A stretch of 62,833 bases of DNA, filler included, from Octopus bimaculoides (GCF_001194135.2; 5 parts of 5 records of this genome joined end to end with filler, not necessarily neighbours in it), one strand, 5' to 3'. Positions 5,599 to 58,331 are shown, counted from the whole stretch's first letter. Made by a program: numbers and translations. Notes: generated by a model from the letters alone, not told the origin.

Positions 5599-5634
5599 CT
5601 TTTACGTTTCGAGACTACGCTCTTCGACAGAAAG
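5599..5634 (-). ncRNA. Candidate minimal type-I hammerhead motif, A6U variant (family H1)
   Basis: Minus strand CTTT-CTGTCGA-A-GAG(cgtagt)CTC-GAAA-CGT-A-AAAG: stem I CTTT/AAAG, stem II GAG/CTC, palindromic stem III ACGT, GUA site. Core position 6 is U instead of A. Confidence 0.45.
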
Positions 5635-5645
5635 GAACATAGAAA

Positions 5646-5723
<78 letters not shown>

Positions 5724-5810
5724 CCTTCTTACCTACCTGTGTGTGTGTCTCTCTGTCTGTTGGTGTGTCTCTGTCTAGTTTCTAATAATATTCAATTATA
5801 AACTTTACTT

Positions 5811-5968
5811 TCTGAGTTCAAATTCTGCCGAGGTCGATTTTTGCCATTCATCCTTCCGGAGGGGTCGATAAAATAAGTACCAGTTGAGAACTGAGGTCGA
5901 TGTAATCGACACTTACCCCCCACCCACCCTCGAAATTGCTGGCCTTGTGTCAAAACTTAAGACCAATA
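5811..5968 (+). mobile_element. tRNA-derived SINE (type B), 5'-truncated
   Basis: B-box-like gagttcaaattc followed by the body (gtcgataaaataagtaccagttgag..gtcgatgtaatcgac..aaattgctggccttgtg) shared with 7003-7190, 9922-10140 and 56059-56270. Confidence 0.8.
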
Positions 5969-6339
5969 TTTCGTTATAAAAATATAACAGGATTGTTTAA
6001 ACATCGAATGGCTATGAGGGTCCACTCTTGCAAAATTGGAATCAGAGCGGTCCCTAGTAAAACCACAGCGTTAGGTGCCACATCATATTATATAAAGCCA
6101 TACTGCACTACACAATACTCTACATCAAACAGCGACACCATGGCATACCACACTGCTCCGTACCAATATAGGACCGAACGCCATGTTGCTAGAACACACC
6201 CACCCAGTATATTAGCGCCACCACTCTGGACCTCCTCTTTGCTTTAAAAATTCTCATTAGATTTTATTAGATTTGTCACCAGCAATTTTGTCGATTCAAC
6301 CAATCAGATACACGTTTCCACTGTGACTATCACTGCTAC

Positions 6340-6350
6340 TTATACACCAC

Positions 6351-6397
<47 letters not shown>

Positions 6398-6960
6398 CCA
6401 GCAGCCGCTCCCCCTCCCCCCGCATCATCACCACCGTCAACATCACCGCCACGACCACCATCAACAGCAGCAGCAACATAAGTAGCAGCAGCAGCTGTAG
6501 CAAGTTCCATCACCACCGCAACCACCAGCACCACCATTACCAGCATCACCGCTACCATCCCAACCAGCATCACCAGAAGCAGCAGCAACAGCAACAACGA
6601 TATGACATTATCGTCACCACATCATCATCACTATCTCCACATCCACCTCCACCAACACCACCACTAACATGCACCCCCATTACTTCCACTACCACCGCAG
6701 TTACCACCAGCAACCCCACCAGCACCAGAAACACAATCAAAACTACCCACCACCTTACAAGACCTGCTACTACCTCCACAAGCACTACAACCTCGACCGT
6801 CACAAAACAGCCACCACCACCACCACCACCACCACCACCACTGACAACACCATCAACAACAACACTGTTACCACAACCTTCACCACTACGACCATTAGAA
6901 GCACACCCGCACCGCTGTGTAGTGGCAGTTGCGGTGGTGACTATGATGATGAAGGTGATA
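6340..6960. repeat. (CAT)/(CAC)/(CAG) low-complexity tract
   Basis: Directly visible. Confidence 0.9.
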
Positions 6961-7002
6961 AATAGGATGACGAGGATGAAGATAATCCTTTCTACTGGAG
7001 GC

Positions 7003-7190
7003 ACAAGGCCTCAGATTTGGTGGGGAGGGGACTAGACAATTACATCGACCCCAGTGTGTAACTGGTACTTAATTTATCGACCCTCGAAAGGATGAAAGGC
7101 AAAGTTGACCTCGGCGGAATTCGAACTCGGAACGCAGCGACGGGCGAGAAAATACCGATAAGCGTGCTACCGACTCTGCCAGGTCGCCGC
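7003..7190 (-). mobile_element. tRNA-derived SINE (type B), near full length
   Basis: Minus strand ggcggcgacctggcagagtcggtagcacg (A box) ... gagttcgaattcc (B box), then the type B body. Confidence 0.85.
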
Positions 7191-7320
7191 CATGATGGAG
7201 AAGATAATGATGACAATGACGACGATGACGGAGGTGTTGATGACGACGACGACGACGACGACGACGACAATGATGATGGCGATGATGATGATGATGATGA
7301 GCAGGATGTTGATGACACGA

Positions 7321-7359
<39 letters not shown>

Positions 7360-10140: not shown

Positions 10141-10164
10141 CTACCATAATAGACGTACAATTCT

Positions 10165-13168: not shown

Positions 13169-13699
13169 CGGCTGTTCCCGCGCCTCTCTCTCTCTCTCTC
13201 GCCATACTCCGGAGATATGTATTTCTGGGAAACTGCATAGTTCGCCTTCCCATAAAGAGGATACAGTCTGAATAATCTAAAATAAAAAGAAAAAAAAAGA
13301 AATCATTGACCTAAATTGCAACTCAAAATGCAACAGCTAATGTTATACCAATTTACTGTTTTTTTACAATTATTGATTCTACACAATTGCAAAGAAGCTT
13401 GAACGATCGTTGATGGTCGTCGTATTAAATTTGTTTTAATGTTTCACATACATACGTACATTCATAAATTCATACATATTTACACATACACACGCACGCA
13501 CGCTCGCACACGCACACGTGCGCGCACGCACGCACACATAATCGGAATGTTTTGGATATTTCTCACTGAGGAGACGAAATTAATTCGAAACTGTCTGGTG
13601 ATCCATCAACATTCTGAATAAAGCCGTATGTTCGTTCATTAGTACATAAATTTCTTGAAGTCGATCTATGCAACATTTTGATCACATATGCAAAGAGCC

Positions 13700-17148: not shown

Positions 17149-19128
17149 ACATAGCTATTGCGTAGTAAACATCTTCGAGTAGTTAATAAACTTGAGATAA
17201 GCACATCGTTTCCCTGTAACCTATGGTGGCGTTGTTGTTTCAGGTGGCTAAATTGTTTAAAGAGAGGAGGAGAATCTATTATGTTCGAAGAATAATACAG
17301 AGAGAGATGTATTACGCGAAAATTAGGAGATACATTGCGGAACTGTTATTTTAACGAATTATATCTGTTTATTACCCGAAAAGACATGCTTGCACCGTCG
17401 GATGTTCCTGAATATGTTGTTACGTAGTCCACCCGTGAGGGGATCGATGCTAGATGCTTCTAAACAATTGTCGTGAGTAATAAAAATTCTCGTATGTTCC
17501 ATATTCCGTCTTGATATATTATCTATATATAGAGATAGATATAATTTGCCTCTGGCTTAAACAGTTTAGGGATAACGGAACCCCTTTAGTGGTGAGCTAT
17601 GCTATTAATATTCTGATAGCGTAATAGTATTCTAGAACTATGTAGATTTCGACAGATAAGGGCTTAGGAGAGAATAATTATTAAATAAAGTGCCCTGTAT
17701 CAACGTATTAAAAGTGAAACAACATATCCAGTTTTATTTATGTTTCAAGGACACACACACACATAGTAAAAGTGGACCAAAGAAGATTGTTTTCATAATG
17801 GAGCCGAACACCTTTCTCCATGTGATCGGCTTGAAAAATTATGAAGATACTTCGATATTTCCCACTCTTCGTTACATGAAACCAATGGTAGCCTTAATTC
17901 AAGAAATAAAGAAATTATATATATATATATNNNNNNNNNNNNNNNNNNNNNNNNNNNNNNNNNNNNNNNNNNNNNNNNNNNNNNNNNNNNNNNNNNNNNN
18001 NNNNNNNNNNNNNNNNNNNNNNNNNNNTATATATATACCATTACGCGTTTAGTCAAACAGATAGGTGTACGTAAACATGGAAATTTAGGGCATTCCAGAG
18101 GATGTTTTTATGTCCTCACATGAACGTAGACGACATAAGGAAAATTGTGCTACTGGATAGTAGTCCATGTTAGCTTTAATCGCGCCTTGATTTAACATTC
18201 CCTCTCATATACGCCGCAGATAATGTTGAAATAATAAAACATTCTGTTCCATTTACAATTTTGAAAACAAATGATTGTTTTCAGCTTAAGTTATTGGCAA
18301 TGTAATTTTCGTAATCAAATAGGTAATGAATCAAAGACAGGCGATTGTTCATTCATTGTATCTACTAGTTGAACATATGTAGCCGTATTAGAAATGTCTA
18401 TGCTACATACTTGAAAATGATATAATTAAAGCTGAAATGGGAACGCTAGTCAGTCGTAAGTTTTAGTTAATAGTCAATTTTTCCACATTTATTGTTGTAA
18501 TATCTTACTGATGCTTACACAAAATGCTGAAAATATCACAAAGGACTGACGTTGTGAATCACATTTCCAAGTTATATGAAGTGACACAACCACCTTACAA
18601 ATTGCTTCACTCAATCAGCTTACTGAGGATTTCTTACTTAATGCGCTTATCACAAAGATAATAAGCGAATCTAAAAAATAAACAGAAAGCATCGTTCCAC
18701 GATGGTATTTTTCAGCAATGGAAATCACGTAAGTCGTTTTCAATGTTCATATCTTTGCCTTAGGAATTGTTAACTGCTTATAAATTTATTTTTCTATTTT
18801 GAGGTTGCTTGTTGAAGGATTATTTTAACTGTAAAGATTACGATGTGAAAACCGTAATGACAGAATAGATTGTGGAAGTGTTTCTGGCAAGAATAGAAGG
18901 TTTGAATTCATATCATCTGAATTATGCTGAATAACAAATGTCACATTTTCGCCATATCGAAATCTGATACATTTTACTCATGTGATCTTTATAACATGCA
19001 AGACTATTAAACAATTAATGTATCAGCAAGTAACTCTGTATCATAAACTCTGACGCACCGTTAACCCATTTATAGAAGTTATATCAATTAATCGATTAAC
19101 TCAGTATCTAAATTTCATATACATTATA

Positions 19129-20761
19129 CATTATCGCCCATAATATACGTGTCAATAAGAACAAGTGTATTGAAATATTTATTATATAAGATTAACAAAA
19201 CATTGAGACTATATATTTGACACATATTTAGTCATAACTAACCTCTATCTTTCGTTAATATTTCTTAAGTTATGAGGAAATAAACACATAATCTTCCAAA
19301 CTGCAACGACGAAAATTTAAGGTTCACTTAGAAAAAAAAAGGGAAAATGGAACAAGAGCAAAAAGAAACCCTTACTATTAATATTTTATGAACATCCCTT
19401 TACTATCAATGGTCTCCTGACATTTATTACCACTGAACTGAAATAACTTCTTGTAAAATGATGGAGTAATATTGTTCCATTCGATTTTTAAATAATTCTC
19501 AGTGTTCTTCTCGGTTCTTTTGGTTTTCTCCTTCGTGTCCCATCTCCAATAATATTCCAAACGTTTTCTATAGAGTTGAGATCGGGACTCTGAAATGGCC
19601 AGTCCATGAGATCGATCCCTTCATCACTGAAAAAATGTTTGACTCTCTTCGCAATGTGAAAGGAAGCATTGTCCTGCACGAAGATAGGAGGTTGAACTGA
19701 CGAGGATCGGAGATGTGGAAGGGCATGCTGTCTAAGAATACGCTTGTAGATTTCAGCATTGACAGTTTATTGTAGGCAAATAAGTGGACCCGGACCAGCA
19801 GCAGAGATCACTCACCATACCCTTAGTATTAAAAGTACATTGCCTCCTCCACATTTCCGTATCTTCTTCACACATGCACGAGATAACCGTTCGCTACTTC
19901 TTCGTCGGACGTACATCCCGCCGTCGGAAACAATTACATCAAGCTTTGATTCTTCGATAAAATGGAGCCGCGACCACTGTTCTTCTGCCTAAACGACATG
20001 TTCGTGAGAGAAACGAAAACGGACTCTTTGGTTCTTCTTGGAGATCAGAGGTTTCTTTGCCGGTTCACGAGCAAGCAAACCATACACTTGTAACCTCCGA
20101 GAAACTGTTTTGCGCGATATGTTGACATCAGAGGTGGAGTTAGACTCGTGGGATGTCTCAGCAGCACTCTTAAACCTATCCTTCAGTGACATTCTAATCA
20201 TAAAACAATCCTGTCTTGGTGAAGTTTTACGAGGTCTACGAGTTTTGGGTTTAGCATCTGTCGATCCTGATGACTTAAAACTAGCTACAATTCGTTGCAC
20301 AGCGCTTCTCGACCTTCCTACAGTAGTTGCTATCACAGACGTTGACATACCCTCTCGGTGAATGCACACAATACAGAGTTTTCATCACAGGACAGCGATC
20401 GTCTCTCACAAGCCGCCAAGTAAAGAGTTGAATTTTCCAATAATGTAAGATCATAAGAAGGAACTGTTACCCCATTAGGAGTCTTCTAAACAACAAATAT
20501 CTTGGATAGTAGTTCATTTTTTCTAAGTGACCCTTTACTTTTGGCCGTTGCAATTTGGAACATTGTTTATTTCCTCATAACTTACCAAATATTAATTCGA
20601 TATACTTGAAATTTTCATGAAAAATATATTTTAAATATATCTATGTAGATATATCTATTTAGACATATGTTGAATATATTGTCTCAAGGTGTTGTCAATC
20701 TTCTATAATACCTATTTCAATAAACTTGTTCTTACTGACAGTTATATTATGACTGCTACTG
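19129..20761 (-). mobile_element. Full-length decayed Tc1-family (DD34E) transposon, 1633 bp, long TIRs, TA TSD
   Basis: HTH part (GRSRSAVQRIV..RRPRKTSPRQD..SRKTVSRRL) at 20369-19989; catalytic QDNASFH..WPFQSPDLNSIENVW at 19679-19488. 19129-19336 is an inverted match to about 20517-20761. TA at 19127-19128 and 20762-20763. Confidence 0.93.
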
Positions 20762-25214: not shown

Positions 25215-25709
25215 CAGTTGTCCCGTTTCATCTACTCCGCGTTTCGAAGGTAAGGACAATACGTGACTCCGTTAAAACAGTCCTTCCCGCAAAGCAAATT
25301 AAATTAAATTTAGTATTTTTTGCGGAGGGCAGAAGTGATAACAAAAACAGGACAGTGAGAACAAGACAGTAAAAATAAACGGTGGGAGCTGTTACGCCAA
25401 GACGATGTGAAGATCATGAACGCTAGAAGAACGAGCTTTGAGAAGACAAAGGTAAAAGCCCGTTTGTCTTTAGAAAAGAAGTGGAAGAAAGAAAGATAAA
25501 TGGCATTTCGTCACGTGTCAGCAAAGAGAGAGTCATGGAGGGTGTGTGATAGGGAGAGAGGAAACGGTGAAGGGGAGAGGAAATGAAAAGGGAATACGAC
25601 AGAAAAACAGAAAGGAAGAAGGACAAGAGAGGGAAATAAATAAACAGAGAAGGGGTAGAATAGTGTTCTTACCATCGAAACACGGAGGAGATGAAACAGG
25701 GGACAACTG
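25215..25709. mobile_element. 495-bp non-autonomous TIR element (MITE), about 45-bp TIRs
   Basis: cagttgtcccgtttcatctactccgcgtttcgaaggtaaggac vs gttcttaccatcgaaacacggaggagatgaaacaggggacaactg; ATG on both flanks. Confidence 0.75.
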
Positions 25710-26419: not shown

Positions 26420-27419
26420 ATATTTGTTTTGCAAGATTCTTGATGTGAAATCGTGTGTTGAAACAGATATTGTTGTATTTGGGGGATGGTCATGTTGCCA
26501 GTTTAGCCAATAAAAACACACGCACTATATATTTAGTGTTAATTTGCTTCAGCTTTATTTTACATTAATTGTATTTCGCCCAGAGTTCTTTCATCACACT
26601 TCTGTGACCTCATTAGTGGTCCTTTGCTTTCTTCTTTCTTATTTGTGTGTCCCTCCTTACTAACGATCAGTCATTTTGTATTTTGTATTCCTATTGTATG
26701 TATCTATATTTGCGCATGCATATGCCTCTATGTGTGTCTATGTTTGTCTATGTTTAGTAAGTGCATGTGTGTGTATGGGGAGTGCCTGTATTATCTGTAT
26801 CCCCTGTTTATACATGTTTGTTTAATTTGTTTTATTTATTTGTTCATGTGTTTATACCTACTTTTTTTTGTATTTAATTTAATTTTGTTAACGTATGTAG
26901 TTATTTAATTCCATTTGTTTATCTTTTTATTTATTTATTTATTTATTTATGTGTTTCAGCCAAGTGGCTGCGGTCATGCTGGTGCACCACCGTAATTTTC
27001 ACGTTCCTCGCATGGCTCTTCTCCCCCACCTGACATGGTCCAATCAAGAGTTTTGATGGCACATCTGGTGTATAAGAGAATTTGACATAGCTGCCCTAAT
27101 CTGTGTATTATATTATATTTTGTTCATATTGTTATCAGTTTATGGGAATTTTATTGTCATATGTTGTGGTTTGTTGGGTGTGTGTGCTAGTGTTCCATTC
27201 CTATTTAGGTTTGGTTTATCTTCTATTATGTGTGTAGCTTCTGTAATTTGTCTAAGCGCTGCGTCTGTTCTATGTGTGGACAAGATTTTAATTTCTATGT
27301 TGTTGAGTGAGCCTTCGTGTTCCTGCTCAGCGTTTTGGTACAGAACTGATGAGCTCTTCTCTCCCTTAAGTTCCCTCCAATTTTCATTTACCCGTTCTCC
27401 TATGCTCTGTGCTGTTTCC
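26420..27419 (-). mobile_element. Penelope-like element 3' part: GIY-YIG C-terminus plus downstream pLTR-like region
   Basis: Minus strand 27418-27200 translates ETAQSIGERVNENWRELKGEKSSSVLYQNAEQEHEGSLNNIEIKILSTHRTDAALRQITEATHIIEDKPNLNR (GET..ER..H..IL..R.I.EA..I..P.LN pattern). A hammerhead-like motif lies downstream. Confidence 0.8.
26580..26619 (-). ncRNA. Degenerate type-I hammerhead motif (family H2)
   Basis: CCA-CTAATGA-G-GTCACA(gaag)TGTGAT-GAAA-GAAC-TC-TGG; full topology present, but G5 is mutated to A. Confidence 0.55.
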
Positions 27420-27859
27420 NNNNNNNNNNTTATGTAGTGTCATCACTACATGAATAAATGAAGTTTGTACGAAACGTACGTACTGCTATAACCTATTGAA
27501 GTTTTGTTGCTTTTCTTCAAATTTTATTCACCAAATTTCTTGATTTTGTTTTTGGTTTTTACCCTACCAAATTCTGGTGCCTCAAATATTTTAAGTACCA
27601 CATTTAATCTTTTGATTAAATCTATATTATTATATACTGTGTATACATATTTCTATATATAATGTGTATATATATATAATGTATATATATATATATATAA
27701 TATGTGTATCTATATATATAAAGTGTACATATCTATATTTATATCTATATATATATAATGTGTATACATATGAATATATAATGTGTATACATATACATAT
27801 ATATATTTAATGCGTATATATATATATATATGTAATGTGTGCATATAATGCATGCATAT

Positions 27860-31551: not shown

Positions 31552-31870
31552 ATCTGTAAAAATATGTGACACTTATTTGGTAGCCATGATAAAACTCTGA
31601 GTTTCAGATGCCGGGGTGGGAACCCACACCAACATCTCTTCAGTTATCCAGCCATTGAAAAGTCCTGTGAAAAATGACCATTAAACAAAGGGAAATTACT
31701 GTGTGGTTGACCGTTATTAAGACAAAAGAGCTATAGACCCCTAAGTAAGGAGAGGGGGTAAAGGTAAGGGATTAAAAAAGCCTATAGTGTTCGCGTAAGC
31801 GCACCAATCCATATATTCACCTATATGTATATACTAAACCACCCTCGCTTGAAACACACATGCTCATTTG
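31552..31870 (-). mobile_element. Non-coding repeat family C (pLTR/retrozyme-like), copy 1
   Basis: atctgtaaaaatatgtgac..aaatgaccattaaacaaagggaaattactgtgtggttgacc.. shared with 44981, 48298 and (inverted) 49991. Confidence 0.8.
31588..31648 (-). ncRNA. Type-I hammerhead motif with intact core (family H3)
   Basis: GATAA-CTGAAGA-GATG..GTGGGttCCCAC..CATC-T-GAAA-CTCaGAG-TT-TTATC: 5-bp stem I, canonical CUGANGA and GAAA, stem III ACTC/GAGT, GUU site; one extra nt before GAAA. Confidence 0.75.
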
Positions 31871-34280: not shown

Positions 34281-34489
34281 CAAAAGGAAACCCCAAAACA
34301 GCTGAAACCAGTAAAAGAATAAGAATATATATATATATATATANNNNNNNNNNNNNNNNNNNNNNNNNNNNNNNNNNNNNNNNNNNNNNNNNNNNNNNNN
34401 NNNNNNNNNNNNNNNNNNNNNNNNNNNNNNNNNNNNNNNNNNNNNNNNCCTACATGTAAATGCTGAACAATCATAATGAGTACTTAACA

Positions 34490-36170: not shown

Positions 36171-36223
36171 CATAGACGCGTTTCTGGCTTAGAAGAGAAA
36201 AACTCTTCATTTCCTTCGGTATG
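36171..36223 (-). ncRNA. Degenerate type-I hammerhead motif (family H4)
   Basis: CATA-CCGAAGG-aaatGAAGAG(ttttt)CTCTTCtaagcc-A-GAAAC-GCGTC-TATG: stem I CATA/TATG, palindromic ACGCGT stem III, GUC site; core has U4C and A9G. Partial second copy cataccgaagggcttgg on the plus strand near 36312. Confidence 0.55.
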
Positions 36224-36474
36224 TGGTGAAGCAACTGTTGCTGATCCCTTAATTATGTTTATAAATGTATAAGAACTTTTAAATAAGTTCTTCACCGATA
36301 ATGGTGTTTACATACCGAAGGGCTTGGTAAAAATTATTAATTATTAATTTATTAATAAATTGATAATCCTTTACCCTTTTAATTGTATATATATATATAT
36401 ATATATAAAGGCGGTTGACTGAAACAATAAAAGAATGTACACGTAAATGTCAAACAATGACAATGAGAGCTCAA

Positions 36475-37210
36475 CACTGCATTGGTGGATATAATTTCTT
36501 TATTTGTGAATTAAGGCTACCATTGGTGTCATGTTAAGAAAAGTAGGAAAATATCCTAGCATCTCAACAATTTTTGAAGTCGATTACGTAGAGAAAGGTG
36601 TTTACCTTTGTTTTGGAAAACACAGCCTCATTTAATTCACAGTAATTCTTGTGAATTCTCATGAATAAAACAATGAATCAAATGACGTTACTCTTGGGTA
36701 GCATCTTTTGAATGTTTGTCTTCCTTGGATTTGTCTTTTGGACAAACTGTTGTGTGGTCAATTTGTTTGCATTTTTTTATTTTTGTTCTGGGTGTGATGT
36801 TCTTATGCTTGTTTGCTAAGTTAGTTCATTATCGAGGCATATTTCTTCTGTGTGTGGAGTTTGTGTACTATGTGTGCCAGATTTCACATTCAGAAAAGGG
36901 GCTATCCTGGTGGAACTACTGTCACAGATGGTGGTTCTTCTTTGAAGTATTTGAGTGTAAAATATTGCTTGTGCATGCTGAGAGAGAAGGTTTCATCCCT
37001 AATATTTAGGATGTTATCTGTTGATTGTGTAATACTTAGATTTTCAGTAATACAGAGTTCAGATTTGGCACCCCATCCTCTGTATTTTTTTGGCTTTAGC
37101 AATAATTTTCCATTCTATGTGGGGGTTGCTTACTCTACCTTCTTTCAATGTCCATATCATATTTGACAGGGATGTTGCATGGTTTTTATCTTTGTTTCTG
37201 AATGATGCCA
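36475..37210 (-). mobile_element. Penelope-like element 3' part (same family as 34490-35465)
   Basis: ORF 37102-36902 (PKKYRGWGAKSELCITENL..MHKQYFTLKYFKEEP) is paralogous to 35081-35332. Confidence 0.8.
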
Positions 37211-37214
37211 GATG

Positions 37215-38526
37215 TTGTGTATCAATGGTTTTTAGTTAAATTTGGAGTGTTGAATCTAAATCTGGCATCAGATTTTGTCTACCACATCAGATTTTTGAGA
37301 TATAAAACCTTTTAGTTTTGCTAGAAAGAGCTATTTAATGCTCATAAAGGAAGAATTAAACATACATAGATGCAATTTTTAATCGATGATATGTCTGTTT
37401 TTGTTAATCTAATAACTCAAAACAGAAATCTCTGGGTGTAAATGCATATTAGCATGTAAGAATTAAGCTTGGTGATAACAAAATATGAATACAAAATCTC
37501 TATTCATTGTGGTCATTCATTCTGATCATCTTATTACTACAAGAACTTCCTCTTTTTTGATGATCTCTTGTGCACAGCTTCTGGAATATCTCATCAAACT
37601 CCAGCAATAATCTGCCATCATGTTTGAGTACCATTGTCCTTGGTAGCATTCTTCCATTACTTTTACATCTTGATGAAAGCATTCACCTTGTTCTTTGCTA
37701 ACATCACTCATGTTTTCTGCAAACTCACCCAAGTGACTGTGAAAGTGGTGCAATTTAATGCTCATTCTACACCCAAGTGCTTGCAAACTCAAGAGCAGTT
37801 CCTCCATGATCTGTTGATAGTTGTCAGCTCTCCTATTTACAAGGAAATCAGTACAACATCAGAGAAGGCATTCCAAAGTCTAGCCTCAGCTGCATTCATT
37901 GTTGTAACAAAATGTGGATCCCTGAGGAGTATTCTTATTTGAGGTCTATCAAATATTCCTGCCATCTTCTCATTACTGAGATTTGGAAAGGGTGTACATA
38001 TATGAAGCAGTCTCCACTGTGATCAAGAGCTTTAATGAACTGCTTCATCACACCAAGTTTCAACACAGGTTCTGTTCTGGTCTCCAAATGCTACTTTAAA
38101 CTAAGCATGATACACTTTCTTGACAAAGTTATTAATGTTTCCCCTTTGAGCCTGTAGAGTGAAGTTTCCACAGGTGTAACAGAAGATATCAGGGTCATTA
38201 CAGCACATCCTTCTTTTTGATGTTGTATCCATAACTATATCACAGTGGTCTGCCTCACACCTGAAAAGAAGAGAAAGGGTTTCAAAGCAGAATATAGCTT
38301 GAACATATTCAAAATTAGCATGACAATGCAGTGAAAATTCTTGCAAATACTGGTGTAAAGTTACCTTTTGGTATGCTCCAGGTAAATAAAGGTATGCACT
38401 GATGGCACAAAAATGTGATGTGAGAAAGCAAGTCTGAGGTTTGTTTTGGAATCAGCAACCAAAAATTAGTCTAAAGCAGCTCTAAGATTTTATGCCAGAA
38501 AATAAGTTTTATTTTGATGACCAGTG
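37215..38526 (-). mobile_element. Internally deleted Chapaev3-like (CMC) DNA transposon
   Basis: N-terminal CCNDPDIFCYTCG and C-terminal MSIKLHHFHSHLGEFAENMSDVSKEQGECFHQDVKVMEECYQGQW..MMADYCWSL; minus-strand terminus CACTGGTCATCAAAA at 38526. Superfamily assignment is from recall. Confidence 0.7.
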
Positions 38527-38579: not shown

Positions 38580-40637
38580 ACAGTAGCAATATGGAATTGT
38601 AAGATGTAATTGCCAACTAAGTGTAGCACCACTTGATCAATTACTAAAATAAAAATGCCAAATGGGTTTGGACAGAGAAATGCCAGAAAGCATTTAATGA
38701 GTTAAAAGATGTGCTAACTTCAGACTTGTATCCTCGACCCAAAGTTAGAGATGGTACTAGCTACAGATGCTAGCAAGTATGGGATAGGAGCCATGCTCCT
38801 ACACAAGGATAATGATGGCAGCAGAAAGGCCATAGCTCCCACATCAAGGACATTATTGCCGATGGAAAAGAGGCATAGGCTATTATATTTGGCTTGAAAA
38901 AGTTCCACAGGTTCATTCATGGCGGACATTTTTGGTTGCAAACCATAGACTTCTAATAACAATATACAGGTTCAAGAAAGGAATCCTGACACATACGGCA
39001 AACACACTGCAGCTGTAGGGTACCATCCTATTAAACTACAACTATAGAATGGAATATCTGCTTTCAAAAAAGTTGGGGCATGCTGGTGGTCTGTCTAGGT
39101 TAATTCTGAGAAATAACAAACCACTGGAGGACACCATTATAGCAGCGCTAAGAGCAGAAACAAAAGAAGTGCACTGCTTACACAGTCACTTGGGTGAGTT
39201 TGCAGAAAATGTAAGTGATGTGGAACATCATGCGTGTACTACCAGTAACTCTGGAAGAAATAAAAAGAAATGTAAGAAATGACAAATTTATTAATGAGAC
39301 AAAAAGAAAACTGTGGTCAACAAAAGGAAATAAATAAAGGTCTGATGCAAAGAATCACCAAGATGTGAGTGTGTACTCTATATGTGATGGTGTACTAATG
39401 TATACTCAGAGGATGGTTATACCACAAACATTACAGAAGAGAATGCTAAAAGAGTTTGAGCTTCGTGTGGGACACCTAGGCATTTCTAGAATGAAAGTGC
39501 TGATACAAAGTTTCATATACTGGCTAAGCATGGACAAGGAAGTTGAAAACCTGGTAAAAGGCTGCAGAGGATGTGCACTGGCAGCAAAACTACCTATTAC
39601 AAAATGTGAACCGTGGCCAGAAGTGAAAATATTATGGTCCTGATTACATATCGATTTTCAATATTGATTTGGGTAACTACCCAAAATAGCCTAAGGTCAT
39701 GAGGTGAAAATGACCAACCTCATATATGTTAATAAACTTCTTACACGAGCTGTTCACAAGATTTGGTGTACCTGATATAATTGTCTCTGATAACAGAATA
39801 CCGTTTGTATCATGTGAGTTTAAAAGATTCTGCGAGATGTTTATGTTAGAACATAAAACTATAGCCCCGTATCACCCTAGATTGAATGGAAGGGCTGAAC
39901 GGTTCATGAATACTTTTAAGAGAGCATTAAAGAAAGCTAATAAGGAAGCTCACAGATGAGGTTGTGATCCAAAAATTCTTAAAGGTATACTGTGTAACTC
40001 TAAACCCAAATGCACCAGCAGAATTAACGTTTGCTAGAAAGGTGAAGTCAGTATTTGATAAACTGTTACCAGTGAAGAAAAAATACATGCTAGCAAGCAA
40101 TACTGGGAAGAAGGACAAAATGTAACATACATAGGGAGAATGATGTATGGTGTAAGAAGCAGAAATGGAATGGAAAGGAGACATAGAAATCAGCTTAAGG
40201 AAAGAGTCATAGAAAAAGAACCAATAAGAGTAGAAATACTGATGGATGGCTATATGACACTTTTCAGGTGCAAGAAGTCGAAACCATGTGTTTAAGGAAG
40301 AAGAAAAACACTGAATTCCTAAAATTAGACCCTAAGAAGAAAAGATGTTGACTATATAAAAAAAAAAAAAGGAGGAGGTGGAAGTGAATAAAAGAAATTG
40401 ATTGTTAAATAAAATATTTAAAAGGGGAGATGTTGTATAGTAAAACTGTATACCCCTCCCAGTAAAAAGTGATCGGAGTCAGCCATTATAAGTAGACCAG
40501 TAGCCGGTCATCAAGAGAGGGTTGAGAGTCAACAGTTCTAGTCAGTGTCTTGTGGAGTTAGTGTATTAGTATTCTGGTATAAAGAGCTACAATGATATCC
40601 AACGACTAATAACTATTGTAGCTACTAGCATAAAACA
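38580..40637 (+). mobile_element. Decayed Gypsy (K02A2.6-like) pol 3' half + PPT + 3' LTR
   Basis: W.WTEKCQKAFNELKDVLT..LATDASKYGIGA (RT-RNaseH); GHLGISRMK..YWLSMDKEVENLVKGCRGC (integrase zinc finger); FGVPDIIVSDN..APYHPRLNGRAERF. PPT aaaggggaga at 40421-40430; LTR TGTT(40431)..AACA (about 40637). Confidence 0.92.
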
Positions 40638-41100: not shown

Positions 41101-41519
41101 GCCATTCACAGAGATTATTTTCTCTGTTAACCTTCCTGTGATACTGCTTCACTTCTTATGTGTTCAAGCTGATGCTGAGTACAGCATACGGAATTTCTAC
41201 CAGCAGCTTTCTTATGTTTAAAGTTTGGAAGTATGGAAGTTGTAAAGATAATTTATAGATATTATTGTGTCACTGGGAAAAGAAAGCTAAAACAACAAAG
41301 TGTGGAAGTGAGTGAGAGTTACAAACACTGAATGCAGGTAAATTTACTCTATGAAATGTAAACAAATATGTGTGCACAAACACACATGCATACACTCACA
41401 CATGCATACACATATGTATATGTATGCACACGCATAGCTGTATATAAATATATATGCATGTGTATGAGTGTACATACACACACACATATATATGTTAAAT
41501 AAAATGAGACATCTTTAAT

Positions 41520-42360
41520 ACATCTACCTTAAAGCTATCCTACTACTCTCTGCCCAAATTTGAGTCTATCATAACAGCATCTAATAGACAAAAACTTTCT
41601 CTCTATTATCAAAACTTACACCGTAACAACTCTGAATACACAAGTGCCCAACATATACATAGCTCCAATATCAAACCCCATACTTTAGACCACAACAAAA
41701 ACCCAACCAATCCCACTAACACTAACCAGAATACTACTACCCCAACTTCCACCGCTATTACAGATACGATAAATAACAACAATGATAGAAATAATAATAA
41801 TGTTAATAACATAGACCAATCTACCCCCATCTCTAACCTCTCCTTAGACAGTATTACCTCCTCCATTCCTGAGAATAATCCGCACAATGCACTACCATGT
41901 AACTGCCGCCCTGGGACCATCTGCCCTCTACAAACCCATTGCAGAAGGTCTAATGTAATTTATGAATGCACCATCCTCAACATGTTACACAATTCTACAA
42001 CCATATATATAGGGTCAACTAGAAATTTTAAACAGTGATATGCTGCACACTTCAATTCTTTTAGATATGAGAAACACAGTAAATCCACAACTCTTGCCAG
42101 TCTCATACATCATCTCAAAAATAGAAATATGTCATACACCTTGTCATGGTCCATAATAAATTCAGGGTTTCCATACCAGGGTCAACGCTAAAAGGGGCAT
42201 TCCACATATTAAAACACAACTCTTCAATGCTACTAATTAAATATAATGAGGCCCTAGGTACATGCGACCACTGGTTTTTTCATACCTTCAAATTTTACCA
42301 CAAATCTAAATGCAACCTAAATCACCACACAGTATATATCCCGAACACCCCTTAGGTAGT
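41520..42360 (+). mobile_element. Penelope-like element GIY-YIG endonuclease region
   Basis: CNCRPGTICPLQTHCRRSNVIYECTI..IYIGSTRNF..STTLASLIHHLK pattern at about 41895-42120. Confidence 0.8.
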
Positions 42361-42688: not shown

Positions 42689-43301
42689 GGATCTATTTCA
42701 AAACGGAGGCACCAGTTTTCATTTATGTTTTATGTAGTGTTTTTGGTACCGAAAGACTTTCAAACTTCGTATACTTATCTATTTTGTGTTATAGAACAGA
42801 AAAAAATGTTTGTATTCGAATTTATTTCATGTAAAAAATTGTCTTATTTCGATAATTTCTACTAATCACTGACGTCTATTCAGCTGAAAACAGTTAGCGC
42901 TGTAACGGTGTATATCGTATTAATCCCCTAACCCTAACCCTAACTCTAGAATCCGAACTCTAAAATTGTTACACACATAGATACGCACAGCGTAATTTAT
43001 TATATAAACAATATATGCGTATAAATTACGATTAAACCGGATGAAATATGTCACAGGGAATAACATTTTTATGACCGCCCAGCAGTAACTCTATTGAGCT
43101 GAATAGACGTCAGTGATTGGTTGAAATTACAGAAATACGACAACTTTAACATGGAATAACTTGCGGTGTACGTTTTTTTGTTAAGAAGACTAAGAGTAAA
43201 AGATGTTTTATATGACACATTCTACCAGTGTCCCAAGTTTCAAAGTGTTTTGTTAGTGTTTCGTTAAGAAAATACTGGTGCCCCCGTTTTGAAATAGATC
43301 C
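42689..43301. mobile_element. 613-bp non-autonomous TIR element with nested inverted repeats and (CCCTAA) core
   Basis: Outer TIR ggatctatttcaaaacgg(a/g)ggcaccagt at both ends; inner IR aatcactgacgtctattcagct / agctgaatagacgtcagtgatt; tctctc on both flanks. Confidence 0.85.
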
Positions 43302-44980: not shown

Positions 44981-45420
44981 ATCTGTAATATAATATGTGA
45001 CAATTATTCAGTCACCATAATAAAACTTCGAGTTTCGGATGTCAGGGCGGAAATCTGCTCCGGCATCTCGTCAGTTATCAAGGCAATCAAAAAAATGCTA
45101 TGAAAATGACCGTTAAACAAAGGGAAATTACTATGTAATTGACCATTATTAAGACAAAAGAGCTATTCAAATGACCATTAAATAAGGGGGAAAAATCGAA
45201 GGGGAGAAAGTAAAAAAGTAAAAATGCTCATAGAAATCGCGTATGCACGCATGTACATACATACACATGTGCGCATGCACACCCACATACATGTGCCTAT
45301 ATGCATATGCTCACTCGCACTCACAAGAAACACATACATGCACACCCACATATACGCCTATATATGCACATATATATGCAACCATACATGTACACATACA
45401 CGTATCTGCACACACACACA
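44981..45420 (-). mobile_element. Family C copy 2
   Basis: Collinear with 31552-31870 and 48298 onward. Confidence 0.8.
45019..45079 (-). ncRNA. Type-I hammerhead motif (family H3)
   Basis: GATAA-CTGACGA-GATG..CATC-C-GAAA-CTCgAAG-TT-TTATT; core intact, N7=C, one stem III mismatch. Confidence 0.7.
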
Positions 45421-46197: not shown

Positions 46198-47330
46198 GCT
46201 TTTACAGGGATGCAATGGCAGGCTGTGCAAAGGACAAGTCGCCAGACTTGGATGGTCTGCCTTATGAGCTCTATTGTCATATGCCAGACTTGTTTGGAGG
46301 TATCTTGGCAGCAGTCTACTGCAACTAGCAGCAAAATGGGAGTATCCCCAGTTTTGTGAGCCAAGAAGCAGTGGCACTGCTAAAGAAAGATCCAAACAAG
46401 GGGAACATCATAGATAACTTCAGGCCCATCGCTCTGCTCAATGCAGATTTGAAGATTTTGACCAAGGTGCTAGAGAAACTGGTTGACAAGGCGCAGGCAT
46501 GCACTGTGCCGGGCAGCAGTATCCATGACAACCTCCATTTGATGTGCTACATCATAGACAGGGTAGTTAAGGAACTTGGCATGGGTGGGGTGCTGATAAA
46601 TTTGGATCTATCAAAAGCTTTCGATAGGGTTGACCATCGTAACTTGGAGGCTGTCCTTAGAGCAGCTGGTTTCAGTCCCGTCTTCTGTGGTTGGATCACT
46701 GCCTTATATAGCAGCATCCGCTCAGTAGTTCGCATAAATGGTCATCCAACCAAACCATTTAACATCACGTGTTTAGTCCATCAAGGATGCTCCCTCTCGT
46801 TACATCTGTACATATTGACTCTAGAGCCACTACTGCAGGAGCTGGCGATGCTGAAGGGCATCTCGCGAGAACTGGGATGCAGGAGGAGTGTGTCTGCATA
46901 TATGGACGACATCACTATCATAGTGTTGAGCTACAAGCATATCAACCTGGTCAGCGAGACACTAAAAGAATACAAAGCGGTAACGGGAGTGAAAATTAAC
47001 TCGGAAATGTCAGTGGGCTTGTGGCTTGGTACCTGGAGAAACAAGCCCATACCATCCAACAGCGTCTCCATTTTGGGACACTGGACCGATGGACCGGTTA
47101 AATTGCTCAGAGTCTGATTCAAACCAGACCTCCAAATGGAAAAGAACTGGGACGAGATAACAAGTAAGGTGGCCACTCTCACCCAGCATTGGGCTGAGAG
47201 GAAGCTATCCCTAAAAGGTTGGGTGGGGGTGGCGAACACGTATATTGCATCCATCATCTATTTCACCTGACCGTCGTGCCTTGTCCCAACCCTACCATCA
47301 CCAAACTGGAACGCATACCCTTTTACTTTT
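46198..47330 (+). mobile_element. Tx1/L1-clade LINE reverse transcriptase fragment
   Basis: LLKKDPNK..NFRPIALLNADLKILTKVL; LDLSKAFDRVDH; HQGCSLS..LYILTLEPLL; SAYMDDITI; KINSEMSVGLWLG; RKLSLKG. Confidence 0.92.
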
Positions 47331-47488: not shown

Positions 47489-48297
47489 NNNNNNNNNNNN
47501 NNNNNNNNNNNNNNNNNNNNNNNNNNNNNNNNNNNNNNNNNNNNNNNNNNNNNNNNNNNNNNNNNNNNNNNNNNNNNNNNNNNNNNNNNNNNNNNNNNNN
47601 NNNNNNNNNNNNNNNNNNNNNNNNNNNNNNNNNNNNNNNNNNNNNNNNNNNNNNNNNNNNNNNNNNNNNNNNNNNNNNNNNNNNNNNNNNNNNNNNNNNN
47701 NNNNNNNNNNNNNNNNNNNNNNNNNNNNNNNNNNNNNNNNNNNNNNNNNNNNNNNNNNNNNNNNNNNNNNNNNNNNNNNNNNNNNNNNNNNNNNNNNNNN
47801 NNNNNNNNNNNNNNNNNNNNNNNNNNNNNNNNNNNNNNNNNNNNNNNNNNNNNNNNNNNNNNNNNNNNNNNNNNNNNNNNNNNNNNNNNNNNNNNNNNNN
47901 NNNNNNNNNNNNNNNNNNNNNNNNNNNNNNNNNNNNNNNNNNNNNNNNNNNNNNNNNNNNNNNNNNNNNNNNNNNNNNNNNNNNNNNNNNNNNNNNNNNN
48001 NNNNNNNNNNNNNNNNNNNNNNNNNNNNNNNNNNNNNNNNNNNNNNNNNNNNNNNNNNNNNNNNNNNNNNNNNNNNNNNNNNNNNNNNNNNNNNNNNNNN
48101 NNNNNNNNNNNNNNNNNNNNNNNNNNNNNNNNNNNNNNNNNNNNNNNNNNNNNNNNNNNNNNNNNNNNNNNNNNNNNNNNNNNNNNNNNNNNNNNNNNNN
48201 NATACATACATTATATATATATATAATGTATATATATTGATAGAAAAGACAACAAAAGAAAGAAAGAGACCTCGATATTATGTAAGTAGAGGAATTT

Positions 48298-49991
48298 ATC
48301 TGTAAAAATATGTGACAATTATTCAGTAGCCATGTTAAAACTCCGAGTTTTGGATGCCGGGGCAGAAACCCACGCCACCATCTCTTCAGTTATCTGGTCA
48401 ATGAAAATTCATATGAAAATGACCGTTAAACAAAGGGAAATTATTGTGTGGTTGACCATTATTAAGACAAAAGAGCTATTAGAATGACCGCTATGTGAAG
48501 GAAGGGAGTAAAGGTAAGGGAGTAAAAAAGTCCATAGTATTCGCCTAAGCGCACCAATCCATACATACACATGCGCACCCGCACACCCACGTACATGTGC
48601 CTATATGTATATACTCATCCACCCTCACTTGAAACACATACTCACCCACGCATTCGCCAAAAATATTTATATATATATATACCCGCATACACGCCCACAA
48701 TATGCTCGCACCCATACACACATCAATATACGCACATACCCAAGAAAAAACAGGGCTTAAGGCAAAATACAAATGTGGAAAAATGTGTGAAAAAAGCTAT
48801 AAGGCCAAAAGGCGTCTATATGCGCATATTCTTGCATGCACACACATACATCTATATACGCGCACACACTCACATAGACATCCACAAGCATGCACAAAAG
48901 GTTCCATGTACATGTCTATAGACACACAGGAAAAAAGCAGGGTGGAAAGGAGAATACAGAAAAAATATGTGTGAAAAATATACAAAACATTATCTCTATA
49001 AGTATCTAAAAAAAAAATATATATATATAAGAAATCTAAGTAAAAAGTATAGAGAGATAAAAAGCTTGTACATAGACACAATATAGAAATCAAGTCCTAT
49101 CAGTGATCTCAGGGGGACCAAAAACGTAGCAGATATTTAGCCACATGTGAACATGATCCAAAGATCCGGAACTGAACATGATCCGAAGATCAAGAACTGA
49201 ACTTTTCGGATCATGTCCACATGTGGCTAAATGTCTGTTACGTTTTTGGTCCCCCCCGAGATTACTGATAGGACTTGCTTTCTATATTGTGTCTATGTAC
49301 AAGCTTTTTATCTCTCTACTTAGATTTCTTATATATTTTTTATATATATTTTTACATATTTATAGAAATATTGTATTTATAGGTTTATTGCTCATATATT
49401 TCTTATACATATTTTTTTCTGTATTCTACCTTCTACCCTGCTTTTTTCCCTTGTGTCTATAGACGTGTACATGGAACCTTTTGTGCGTGCTTGTGGATGT
49501 GTGCGGGTACGCGCATATATAGATGTATGTGCATGCATGCGAGAATATGCACATATAGACGCATTTTGCCCTTATAGCTTTTCCACACTTTTTTACAATT
49601 TTTTCTGTATTTTGCCTTTAGCCCTGTTTTTTTCTTGGGTAAGTGCATATATTGACATGTGTATGAACCTTTTTGCGCACGTGTATGGGTGCGAGCGTGT
49701 GTGTGTGTGTATGTGGGTATATATATATTTTTTTTTTTTGGCGAATGTGTGGGTGAGCATGTACGTGGGTGTGCGGGCGCGCATGTGTATGTATTGATTG
49801 GTGCGCTTAGGCGAATACTATGGACTTTTTTACTCCATTACCTTTATTCCCTCCCCTCACTTAGCGGTGTCTTAATAACGGTCAACCACACAGTAATTTC
49901 CCTTTGTTTAACGGTCATTTTCATAGCAATTTTCAATGGCCAGATAGGTGAAGAGATGGCTACCGAATAATTGTCACATATTTTTACAGAT
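48298..49991. repeat. 1.7-kb imperfect palindrome of two family C elements (arms 48298-49159 and 49208-49991)
   Basis: Arms align end to end (e.g. aagtcctatcagtgatctcagggggaccaaaaacgtagcagatatttagccacatgtg vs its reverse complement at 49220-49277); the centre has a 2 x 25-bp tandem. Confidence 0.92.
48334..48394 (-). ncRNA. Inactivated hammerhead motif (family H3, G12A)
   Basis: GATAA-CTGAAGA-GATG..CATC-C-AAAA-CTCgGAG-TT-TTAAC. Confidence 0.6.
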
Positions 49992-49994
49992 ATA

Positions 49995-55107: not shown

Positions 55108-55141
<34 letters not shown>

Positions 55142-55500
55142 GTGGAGTAGTTTGTGCGGTAATGTAGTGTCTGCTTTGTGTGTATTACTATGGTGTATGT
55201 GTGTGTCTGTCTGTCTGTGTATGTGCGTGAGAAAGTTTGTGCTGTGTGAGTGTATATGTGCGTGAAAAGGTGTGCTGTTGTATGTATGTGAGAAGGTGTG
55301 GTAATGTATTACGTGTGTGTACGTGAGATGATATGGTGCTGCGTGCATCTGTGAGTGTGTGTGAGTGTGTTAGTGTGAAATGTATTGTTTATGTGACAGT
55401 AAGATGTTACATATTGTGTTATGTGGTAAGATGTGTTACAGCATGTGTTTTACTATAGTTGTATTCTTGTGCGTGTGACATTGTCACGTTACAGTGTACC
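52450..55500. repeat. GT-rich low-complexity field ((GGT)n, (GT)n)
   Basis: Directly visible. Confidence 0.9.
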
Positions 55501-55589
55501 ATGTGGTGTGGGGTGGTGGAGTATGACTTCTTATGTGGTGTGACGCGTAGTTTAGGGGAATGTATGTGCCATAGTGCTATAGACTGACG

Positions 55590-55918
55590 TGTGAAGGCGC
55601 CTGGCTTAGTGGTTCGGGTATTCGGTTCACGATCCTCAGGGTCGTGAGTTCGATTGCTGGCGGCGCGTTGTGTCTTTGACCAAGACACTCTATTTCACGT
55701 TACTCCAGTTCACTCTGCTCACAAAAATCTGTAGTAGCTGTATTTCAAAGGGACCAGCCTTGTCACATTCTGTGTCACTCTAAATCTATTTGAGAGCTAA
55801 GTTAAGAGTACACGTATCTGTGGAGTGCTCGGTCACCTGAAAGTTAATTTCACGAGCAAGTTGTTCCGATGGTCGGAACGGCTGTAACCCTCCTCGTCGT
55901 AACCGACGGATCGCCACT
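55590..55918 (+). mobile_element. tRNA-derived CORE-like SINE
   Basis: tggcttagtgg (A box), gagttcgatt (B box), gcgttgtgtctttgaccaagacac (CORE-like); 3' half shared with 16765-17148. Confidence 0.85.
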
Positions 55919-56058
55919 AGAGGGTGAAGTGTAGTGTGGTGGATGAAGTGTCGTGTTTTGTGGATATTTAGTTTTATAGTATTTTGTGTGGGTGTACAGT
56001 ACTACGCATGTGTGTGTTTGACAGCTTATATAGGAATATACGATAAGGCTAAGAGCTG

Positions 56059-56270
56059 GCGGAATCGTTACTACGCCGAGCAGAAAGTTTAGCGGTATTT
56101 CGTCCGTCTTCACGTTCTGAGTTCAAATTCCACCGAGATCGACATTTCCTTTTTTATCCTTTCGAAGTTGATAAAATAAGTACCAGTTGAGCACTGGAGG
56201 TCGATGTAATCGACTTAACCCCGCCCCAAAATTGCTGGCCTTGTGCCAAAATTTAAAGCCTATTTATTCT
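56059..56270 (+). mobile_element. tRNA-derived SINE (type B), full length
   Basis: gctggcggaatcgtta..gagttcaaattcc..gataaaataagtaccagttgagcactgg..gctggccttgtgccaaaattt. Confidence 0.88.
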
Positions 56271-57764
56271 TTTATACGCTTCAGCCCTAAGGCTGCGACA
56301 ATGTTAGAGTACCGCCAGTGAAAATTAACACATTCCCAAGCCACAAATATATTAGATTTCACAGTGGAGTGACACATACAAACACTGTTGTAACATTGTG
56401 CAGTGTTGTATGTGTGTGAATGAGTTTATGTGTGTATGACTGCTGCTGTGTGAGCATATGTAATTTGTTACTGAGGTGTGTGTGTATCACAGCAGAATGG
56501 CATACAAACAGTTGTTGCGTTGTGCCGTATTGTGTGTTTGTTTGTCTGTTACTGAAATGTGTGTGACTGCTGGCGTGATGCGCAATGTATGTGTGTGTGT
56601 TTGTGTCTGTATGTGCATGTGTGTACGTACGTATCTCTTACTGAGATTTGTGTGACTGCTGTTATGATATGCTGTGTGTGTGTGTGTACGTGTGTCTGTA
56701 TGACAACGTGTATAAGTCATTGTAGAGTGACATATGGCTTATGCAGCTGTGACATGTGTGATATGTTGTGTTTCTGTGTTTGTCTCTTACTTATGATGTG
56801 ATGCATGTGTGTGCGTATGTGNNNNNNNNNNNNNNNNNNNNNNNNNNNNNNNNNNNNNNNNNNNNNNNNNNNNNNNNNNNNNNNNNNNNNNNNNNNNNNN
56901 NNNNNNNNNNNNNNNNNNNNNNNNNNNNNNNNNNNNNNNNNNNNNNNNNNNNNNNNNNNNNNNNNNNNNNNNNNNNNNNNNNNNNNNNNNNNNNNNNNNN
57001 NNNNNNNNNNNNNNNNNNNNNNNNNNNNNNNNNNNNNNNNNNNNNNNNNNNNNNNNNNNNNNNNNNNNNNNNNNNNNNNNNNNNNNNNNNNNNNNNNNNN
57101 NNNNNNNNNNNNNNNNNNNNNNNNNNNNNNNNNNNNNNNNNNNNNNNNNNNNNNNNNNNNNNNNNNNNNNNNNNNNNNNNNNNNNNNNNNNNNNNNNNNN
57201 NNNNNNNNNNNNNNNNNNNNNNNNNNNNNNNNNNNNNNNNNNNNNNNNNNNNNNNNNNNNNNNNNNNNNNNNNNNNNNNNNNNNNNNNNNNNNNNNNNNN
57301 NNNNNNNNNNNNNNNNNNNNNNNNNNNNNNNNNNNNNNNNNNNNNNNNNNNNNNNNNNNNNNNNNNNNNNNNNNNNNNNNNNNNNNNNNNNNNNNNNNNN
57401 NNNNNNNNNNNNNNNNNNNNNNNNNNNNNNNNNNNNNNNNNNNNNNNNNNNNNNNNNNNNNNNNNNNNNNNNNNNNNNNNNNNNNNNNNNNNNNNNNNNN
57501 NNNNNNNNNNNNNNNNNNNNNNNNNNNNNNNNNNNNNNNNNNNNNNNNNNNNNNNNNNNNNNNNNNNNNNNNNNNNNNNNNNNNNNNNNNNNNNNNNNNN
57601 NNNNNNNNNNNNNNNNNNNNNNNNNNNNNNNNNNNNNNNNNNNNNNNNNNNNNNNNNNNNNNNNNNNNNNNNNNNNNNNNNNNNNNNNNNNNNNNNNNNN
57701 NNNNNNNNNNNNNNNNNNNNNNNNNNNNNNNNNNNNNNNNNNNNNNNNATATATATATATATAT

Positions 57765-57975
57765 ATAACGGAGTCTAGACAGCTTTCTTCAAAGAATACC
57801 AGACAAGCCATCCATACCTGGATACAACTCACTCAATAAGAACTCACTACTTGAATGGACCACAGACAAAACTTGACTGTAAAAAGGTTTTAGATAATCC
57901 TATCAGGTGGTGCTATTAAGTTAGACATGGCCTGGACCAATCTTTGGTCGAAACATATCTAAGTTTTATCTAAGT
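57765..57975 (+). mobile_element. CR1-clade LINE 3' end
   Basis: SLDSFLQRIPDKPSIPGYNSLNKNSLLEW, comparable to the CR1 terminus at about 34180-34275; short tandem tail tctaagttttatctaagttt. Confidence 0.75.
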
Positions 57976-58011
57976 TTATATATATGTATATATTTATATA
58001 TATATATGTTG

Positions 58012-58331
58012 TTTTCAGAATGAGATAAAAAAAAATAAGGCTGTGAAGATTTTAGAACATTTATAAATAGAAGGTCTTACAGCTGTTTCCAGGATATTTA
58101 TTATATCCCTTCGTCGGTGACGGTGTGAGATAATGGTTAAGCAATAGTTAGTTTAGATAAGATACGAAATAGAGAGTGAAGTGAAAATAGATGTGAGATA
58201 TGCATAACCATCTTCTCACACCGTCTCCGATGAAGGGATATAATAAATATCCTGAAAACAGCTGTGACACCTTCTATTTATAAATGTTTTAAAATCTTCA
58301 CAGCCTTGATTTTTTTATCTCATTCTGAAAA
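58012..58331. repeat. Inverted repeat (arms 58012-58139 and 58205-58331), each arm carrying a hammerhead-like motif (family H5)
   Basis: Arms are near reverse complements. Motif: GTC(T/A)-CCGAYGA-AG-GGATAT(aataa)ATATCC-T-(G/-)GAAA(A/-)CAGCTGT(A/G)-A(G/C)AC at 58074-58121 (-) and 58223-58270 (+). Confidence 0.88.

Follow-up and report, generated by a model that had tools for sequence, protein, structure and literature searches.

Do the hammerhead-like motifs in a stretch of Octopus bimaculoides DNA belong to a known kind of mobile element, and do their odd catalytic letters mark family traits or the decay of single copies? The stretch, here called the window, comprises 62,833 nucleotides, filler included, joined end to end from five parts of five records of assembly GCF_001194135.2 that are not necessarily neighbours in the genome. 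With a GC content of 34%, 5579 N letters and numerous microsatellites, it has the character of animal-type repetitive DNA. An earlier sequence-only reading had described five unrelated repeat families in it, H1 to H5, each carrying a minimal type-I hammerhead. These motifs are likely the minimal type-I hammerheads of the tails (pseudo-LTRs) of Penelope-like elements (PLEs). The insertions that carry them, from several unrelated families, are short, decaying and likely 5'-truncated.

Motif anatomy and comparison with chance

All eight claimed motifs are present, seven on the minus strand and H5b alone on the plus strand. They are listed below with a partial fourth copy of H3, and core positions follow the usual hammerhead numbering.

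5599..5634, minus strand: H1 motif, with a 4-bp stem I, U at position 6 (A6U), an extra A after A9, and A17
26580..26619, minus strand: H2 motif, with a 3-bp stem I, G5A, an extra G after A9 and a 6-bp stem II
31588..31648, minus strand: H3a motif, with a canonical core, a long stem II, a 9-nt near-palindromic stem III and U17
45019..45079, minus strand: H3b motif, with a canonical core
48334..48394, minus strand: H3c motif, with G12A, in the left arm of a 1.7-kb fold-back (48297-49992)
49758..49992, plus strand: H3d, an inverted fourth H3 copy, 47 nt of whose motif are lost at a 3-nt microhomology
36171..36223, minus strand: H4 motif, with U4C, A9 missing, an extra A before GAAA and a palindromic 6-nt stem III
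58074..58121, minus strand: H5a motif, with U4C, a 7-bp stem II flanked on either side by an extra base, and a palindromic stem III of 8 nt
58223..58270, plus strand: H5b motif, the head-to-head inverted partner of H5a, with C4, G12A and G17

The claim that stem III is self-complementary in four of the five families was borne out for H1 (a 4-nt palindrome), H3, H4 and H5, H2 being the non-palindromic one. The stems differ between families, as stated, and when six motif regions were compared with the window by local BLAST, no motif matched that of another family. The description as repeat families holds for H1 and H3, whereas H2, H4 and H5 were each seen at one site only. The standard core is fully matched by H3a and H3b, carries one change in H1, H2 and H3c, and carries at least two in H4, H5a and H5b. 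The core deviations originally listed do occur, but the list was incomplete, omitting G5A in H2, G12A in H3c and H5b, G17 in H5b, the loss of A9 and the weak stem II closure in H4, the stem I mismatch in H5a and the second extra base beside stem II in H5.

Stems are present in H1, H2 and H3 and partly broken in H4, H5a and H5b, and stem I is short throughout, with no loop-loop tertiary signature. Stem II of H1 has three base pairs in the window copy and four in its family. H4 is the weakest case among the motifs: its core reads C3 C4 G5 A6 N7 G8 followed by G, and in its stem II an internal loop follows after no more than two closing pairs. H5a is mismatched at the first pair of stem I, and G17 is a further departure of H5b from the standard core. 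In H3a, one extra pyrimidine stands next to G12 or, in an alternative parse, forms a bulge after the first stem II pair. This pyrimidine and U17 are common to the three complete H3 copies (3/3); the H3 copies are mutually only 80-85% alike. The pyrimidine can be read as a bulge beside a G10.1 that would pair with the last base, which would leave the core canonical. In the H3 stems, 92% of alignment cells are paired, against 33-55% for slid controls.

A relaxed descriptor, composed after the motifs had been seen, was compared with 60 block-wise dinucleotide shuffles of the window. With at most one core change permitted it gave five matches (H1, H2 and H3a-c, three independent families) against 0.17 ± 0.41 in the shuffles, with a maximum of two; with no core change it gave two matches against none, and with up to two changes seven against 1.5. 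H1, H2 and H3 thus exceed chance, and H4 and H5, too degenerate for the descriptor, are not shown to do so. Three covariance models trained on outside sequences only, with rough E-values, gave 0.0018 for H1, 0.0097 for H3b, 0.26 for H3a and 1.2 for H3c. When the window was compared with Rfam, as had also been proposed, no hammerhead appeared among the best 150 of 209 matches at E<=10, the lowest of which scored 25 bits; those listed are microsatellite look-alikes far under their cut-offs.

Some further stretches resemble the motifs. A motif with a canonical core and weak stems lies at 13563-13598 on the plus strand, just past a (CA)-rich run; it was absent from the earlier description, has a model E of 0.075-0.49 and may be a chance occurrence. 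Just before the H5 pair, 57921-57962 (plus strand) holds a hairpin, GAAA and triplet without most of the 5' core (E 0.19). A possible inverted partial copy of H4 at about 36290-36329 was considered and set aside as ambiguous, the match being 12 nt long with an E of 0.47; scored independently, this segment is a degenerate motif in its own right (E 0.21). A pair of inverted segments, 25215-25261 / 25661-25709, was rejected as a hammerhead for its lack of a cleavage triplet and a 5' core, and is an unrelated repeat in which a hairpin is followed by GAAA and a CG-rich palindrome (GAAA-CGCG-like).

Penelope-like element context

The link to PLEs, already drawn in the sequence-only reading, is supported by GIY-YIG remnants upstream of H2 and H4, by inverted truncated pairs and by microsatellite flanks. 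Three segments bear on the coding side.

27140..27439, minus strand: C-terminal half of a GIY-YIG-like endonuclease frame, broken by a 10-N gap; H2 follows on the same strand, 524 nt past the end of the frame
36836..37235, minus strand: broken Neptune-type endonuclease remnant upstream of H4, matched by 152 of 158 related proteins
49169..49240, plus strand: centre of the H3c/H3d fold-back, weakly matching the C-terminus of a Neptune-type endonuclease

H4 sits on the sense strand 689 nt downstream of its remnant, with sequence resembling a 3' untranslated region and a (TA)n run at about 36387-36408 between the two. The top matches of the H2-side endonuclease in the Atlas, at 0.95-0.96, are unnamed eukaryotic clusters, and the nearest named one is GIY-YIG, at 0.92 and with 15% of members. 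This frame has no Pfam match, cannot be aligned to the Neptune endonucleases (probability 0.5%) and is without a relative among the outside loci described below. Inverted partner copies, placed head to head, are found in H3c/H3d and H5a/H5b, the H5 arms being 91% complementary over 116 nt with a 57-nt spacer, and (TA)n or (TAGA)n runs lie at the 3' ends of the H1, H2, H3 and H5 pieces, so that 5' truncation, an inverted partner and microsatellite targets, the marks of PLE insertion, occur together. PLEs are described as leaving 5'-truncated, inverted copies and favouring microsatellites (PMC8557442), and PLE hammerheads as occurring in pairs on opposite strands, with 100-700 bp between them (Cervera and de la Pena 2014, PMC4209133); the H3c/H3d and H5a/H5b pairs match both descriptions.

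The endonuclease family beside H4 has a second insertion at 34451-35465, an inverted pair (34451-34983 minus, 35023-35400 plus) whose 3' end enters an N gap, and a third 3' fragment at 17807-17915. A search with the sister remnant 34988-35329 gave 1665 matches at E<=0.001, and the best 150, which are those listed, carry a cysteine-rich linker before the endonuclease. Among them, P0162 (709 aa) was read by eye as a reverse transcriptase (RT), a zinc-finger linker and an endonuclease, with no Pfam match. The cysteine-rich linker and the whole RT-endonuclease protein fit these relatives to the Neptune clade as described in PMC8557442. No confirmed relative of the Neptune endonuclease was found in viral contigs. 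An alignment of 26 related endonucleases led to 80 metagenome loci (the best 80 of 498) and 29 genome loci, 109 in all (L001-L109). Of the 84 descriptor matches there that score at least 6, 49 are downstream of the endonuclease in sense orientation.

These outside hammerheads resemble those of the window in several respects. The stem III of H3 is the commonest among them (21 of 80 matches, in loci that are partly redundant), and H3 likewise has no extra base after A9. Of 70 distinct outside stems II, 35 start flush, 19 open with a single extra base on either side, a 1x1 mismatch (A.G in one of them) that H5 shares at the base of its stem II, and nine have one after A9; a stem III palindrome similar to that of H5 recurs. 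The likeness extends to zinc-finger-linked endonuclease remnants, (TA)n flanks and inverted truncated copies. The lone 3' extra base of H3 marks a difference, as it is rare outside, where two of 70 stems were parsed so, one of them a mis-parse and the other doubtful. In L035, L050, L070, L089 and others, stem II opens with a U.U mismatch replacing G10.1-C11.1, which accounts for most of the 19 mismatched stems; a U10.1-U11.1 mismatch is among the natural variants described by Perreault et al. (2011, PMC3088659).

The agreement with PLE minimal hammerheads as described in PMC4209133 covers the type-I topology, the short stem I, the extra base after A9, the G10.1-C11.1 pair, a palindromic stem III of very few bases, a position 17 that is U or A, and the occurrence of mostly single or opposite-strand copies of truncated elements. 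A short palindromic stem III, as here, and cleavage as a dimer are reported for the PLE variants of Lunse, Weinberg and Breaker (2017), as cited in PMC6765202. Many unrelated PLE hammerhead families per invertebrate genome have already been described (PMC4209133), and the overall picture here is therefore ordinary.

Judging from PLE biology, reverse transcription would begin close to the RNA's 3' end and often halt early, so that the tail alone enters the genome, in many cases together with another copy in inverted orientation. The palindromic stem III would let two motifs of a source element join, and cutting after position 17 would then be slow and probably aided by the element's protein. 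Minimal PLE hammerheads are described as cutting weakly and only as dimers or multimers (PMC4209133), and an anole PLE hammerhead as cutting only with protein present, cutting being dispensable for insertion in vitro (PMC11167929); the function of the PLE hammerhead is treated as still open in PMC8557442 and PMC11167929. As cleaving RNAs the window motifs are putative, several copies being changed at catalytic positions, and private changes at G5, A9, G12 or position 17 probably leave most of them inactive; H2 is likely a decayed copy.

Several results weigh against attributing all the motifs to PLE tails. H4 and H5 are missed by the descriptor even with two core changes permitted, their model E-values (2.5 for H5a, 1.4 for H5b and 2.3 for H4) are at chance level, and H2 is missed by all three covariance models at E<=10. 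Two-strand folding makes stem III the intermolecular helix in H3c, H4, H5a and H5b and partly in H3b, but the predicted dimer of H1, H2 and H3a does not form through stem III, and the lowest-energy fold differs from the hammerhead for H1, H3, H5a and the 13563-13598 candidate. In the three H3 copies compared, covariation does not rise above shuffles: one pair is changed on both sides, and 431 of 500 shuffles reach the observed count. On the coding side, the endonuclease link of H3 consists of a tblastn match (E 0.008) to one of the 158 proteins, H1 and H5 have no protein-coding remnant alongside (by open frames and the 158-protein search), and H4, with (TA)n between it and the endonuclease, may have been inserted independently. 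Finally, a Neptune-type remnant at 41508-42343 (plus strand), a cysteine-rich linker and endonuclease interrupted by stops, has no hammerhead downstream of it by the descriptor or the three models.

The H1 family can be followed beyond the window, and its host piece is short.

5490..5645, minus strand: H1 host piece of about 155 nt, flanked by (TAGA)n on either side and starting just upstream of the motif

Parts of this piece are present in 20 of 24 listed sequencing runs, from five coded organisms and one metagenome, and in four of these (three DNA and one guessed to be RNA, with contigs only considered) 9446, 13281, 9001 and 994 contigs match it; H1 is a member of a very high-copy family. 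The family majority keeps GAAA, the stem III palindrome, U16.1 and A17, and minor variants reach up to 7%, mostly at CpG sites, where decay is to be expected. Among the 36 positions reported, one sets the window copy apart from the majority in the three DNA runs: at 5614 the family has another letter, in 95-99.6% of depth, with which stem II regains its fourth pair. The table of differences covers 5579-5614 only: two CpG sites beyond 5614 give no rows, whereas all four inside do, and the empty row at position 6 (5627), beyond this range, is therefore no proof of A6U. Nor do the word shares of the run search bear on position 6, as each word over 5627 also spans the private letter at 5614. Searched with two open positions, the H1 motif had no match in metagenome or viral contigs.

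Two accounts would detach some of the motifs from PLEs. That H4, H5 and perhaps H2 are chance look-alikes chosen by eye is distinctly improbable: the shuffle matches of the two-change descriptor, the model values of H4 and H5 and the failure of the models on H2 are what such an origin would give, but H2 and H4 each follow an endonuclease remnant on its sense strand, at distances of 524 and 689 nt, and H5, itself part of an inverted pair, combines a 7-bp stem II with a palindrome of 8 nt that separates GAAA from the cleavage triplet. A second account, in which H1 and H5 are non-autonomous elements resembling retrozymes or short interspersed elements and move without coding sequence by way of a self-cleaved, possibly circular RNA, is very improbable. 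The missing coding remnants would suit it, as would the abundance of the H1 family, whose depth is confined to about 5546-5639 with varied loose ends upstream, and retrozymes have been proposed as derivatives of PLE pseudo-LTRs (bioRxiv 10.64898/2026.07.22.740005). However, the H1 abundance and ends were obtained by mapping to the 155-nt stretch only. Non-LTR retrozymes, which share with the window a type-I hammerhead in non-coding repeats, are described as tandem units of 170-400 nt with canonical motifs, loop-loop contacts and circular RNA (PMC7229834; bioRxiv 10.64898/2026.07.22.740005), whereas the motifs here are minimal and single or, as in H5, inverted. In the Tandem Repeats Finder list of the window no motif lies within a tandem array, and no tandem unit of 170-400 nt carrying a hammerhead in each copy is found. 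The retrozyme claim of the sequence-only reading, judged on units of 200-400 nt, is not upheld, and neither is mobilisation without coding sequence, for which 5' truncation is the simpler account of a missing open reading frame, though H1 may yet be a non-autonomous family.

Core changes as family traits or as decay

Most of the odd core letters either have precedents or are likely damage in single copies. The extra A after A9, U17 and the palindromic stem III, which had been offered as possibly under-described, all belong to the published consensus: an extra base after A9 and a palindromic stem III are described in PMC4209133, in whose Fig. S3 both U and A are common at position 17. The extra base before GAAA is not without precedent either, one of the 56 rows of that figure having an extra A there. 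U4C can be a family trait, as seen in another animal. Neither U4C nor A6U appears in the 56 rows of Fig. S3, and the descriptor used there fixed the core, adding only U3-A8. No report of U4C or A6U in PLE hammerheads was found in the literature compared, which excludes Lunse et al. 2017, where they may be covered. U4C occurs naturally in a viroid with infectivity kept, and A6C in a phage with low activity (PMC3088659); each of these is one motif of a viroid or phage and has tertiary contacts, and A6U is unmentioned in the main text of that paper.

A pattern search of five genomes gave 40 U4C matches, 37 of them in the one coded G001, against eight for the reversed control. Although G001 is filed as a bacterial bin, its many PLE loci make it likely to be host animal DNA. 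Its main U4C family (for instance L143-L169 and L212, the latter on contig C562 at 3517-5645) has C4 in 31 of 36 copies, U4 in two and other letters in three, and several copies stand in head-to-head pairs like H5. The motif lies directly behind endonuclease frames that are 94-100% identical in the seven best matches, in one case behind an unbroken reading frame, 667 aa or longer, whose RT and GIY-YIG matches fall narrowly below the Pfam cut-offs. CCAAT- and TATA-like words occur just upstream of the motif in this family. A second G001 family has C4 in all three copies, at two sites, and canonical motifs are also frequent in G001, with 56 matches. U4C can therefore spread with a young PLE family and is probably a tolerated family-level variant, although its fixation in the families of H4 or H5 is not thereby shown. 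No A6-variant family was found in the five genomes searched, and a G001 repeat resembling an A6C hammerhead was rejected for having neither stem I nor a cleavage triplet; A6U may nonetheless be a family-level variant in H1. Among the outside Neptune loci, 98 model matches in 100 of the 109 loci have each core position canonical in 96-98, with one U4C and one A6G, a count made with a model trained on canonical cores and on redundant loci.

Family fixation and copy-level decay each have points for and against. That core variants are fixed in families (A6U in H1, U4C in H4 and H5), selection acting on the fold and not on fast cleavage so that the motif serves mainly as a structure for the element's protein, would add to the PLE assignment, and is quite possible, if short of an even chance. 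The two C4 families of G001 argue for it, the main one by its position behind near-identical frames, as does the Acropora row in Fig. S3 of PMC4209133, which has the G001 stem II with canonical U4. With one of 36 H1 positions off the majority, it is not very likely that position 6 was changed in this copy alone; insertion by the anole PLE in vitro needed no cleavage (PMC11167929), and activity was low for single CUGA-turn changes when mutants were scanned (PMC9901934). However, H1 position 6 lies outside the range of the read table, H4 and H5 represent one insertion site each, the outside Neptune motifs are nearly always canonical, the five genomes hold no A6-variant family, and loss of function is not implied by U4C in view of its viroid precedent (PMC3088659). 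The contrary account, that all deviations are random decay in single old copies whose source motifs were canonical, is unlikely. It draws on the divergence of the H3 copies, G12A in single copies of H3 and H5, the sporadic U4C and A6G among canonical sister copies in the outside loci, and the several simultaneous changes in H2; against it stand the extra pyrimidine and U17 in every complete H3 copy, U4C in both H5 arms, which makes U4C likely in the H5 template, and the fixation of U4C in G001.

Combining the PLE assignment with family-level core changes, it may tentatively be proposed that successful animal Penelope families have fixed CUGA-turn changes with their stems kept (A6U in H1, U4C in H5 and the G001 family), and that the motif acts as a protein-assisted, relaxed-core ribozyme or as an RT-recognition fold, not for cutting, missed by canonical-core searches. 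If the cores are indeed weakened and the families yet amplified, they would be natural experiments on the role of the PLE hammerhead, and sister families with U4 or C4 and with A6 or U6 would allow a direct comparison of cleavage, both in the presence and in the absence of the element's protein. PLE hammerheads would then be undercounted in ribozyme censuses that fix the core.

Other repeats in the window

Pfam searches over 22 frames gave four kinds of match, all to other mobile elements.

187-1235, plus strand: DDE_Tnp_1_7 transposase, broken
19139-20751: Tc1-type transposon with terminal inverted repeats
39338-39643, plus strand: integrase zinc-domain fragment
46329-47117, plus strand: LINE reverse transcriptase fragment

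Word-indexed protein searches with the endonuclease fragments gave no match, and with the LINE reverse transcriptase 13, none informative here. About 2.2 tandem copies of a unit of 275-303 nt occupy 27858-28528, with no hammerhead in the 275-nt tandem at 27913-28528. A non-coding element with terminal inverted repeats and a short internal CCCTAA run lies at 42689-43301.

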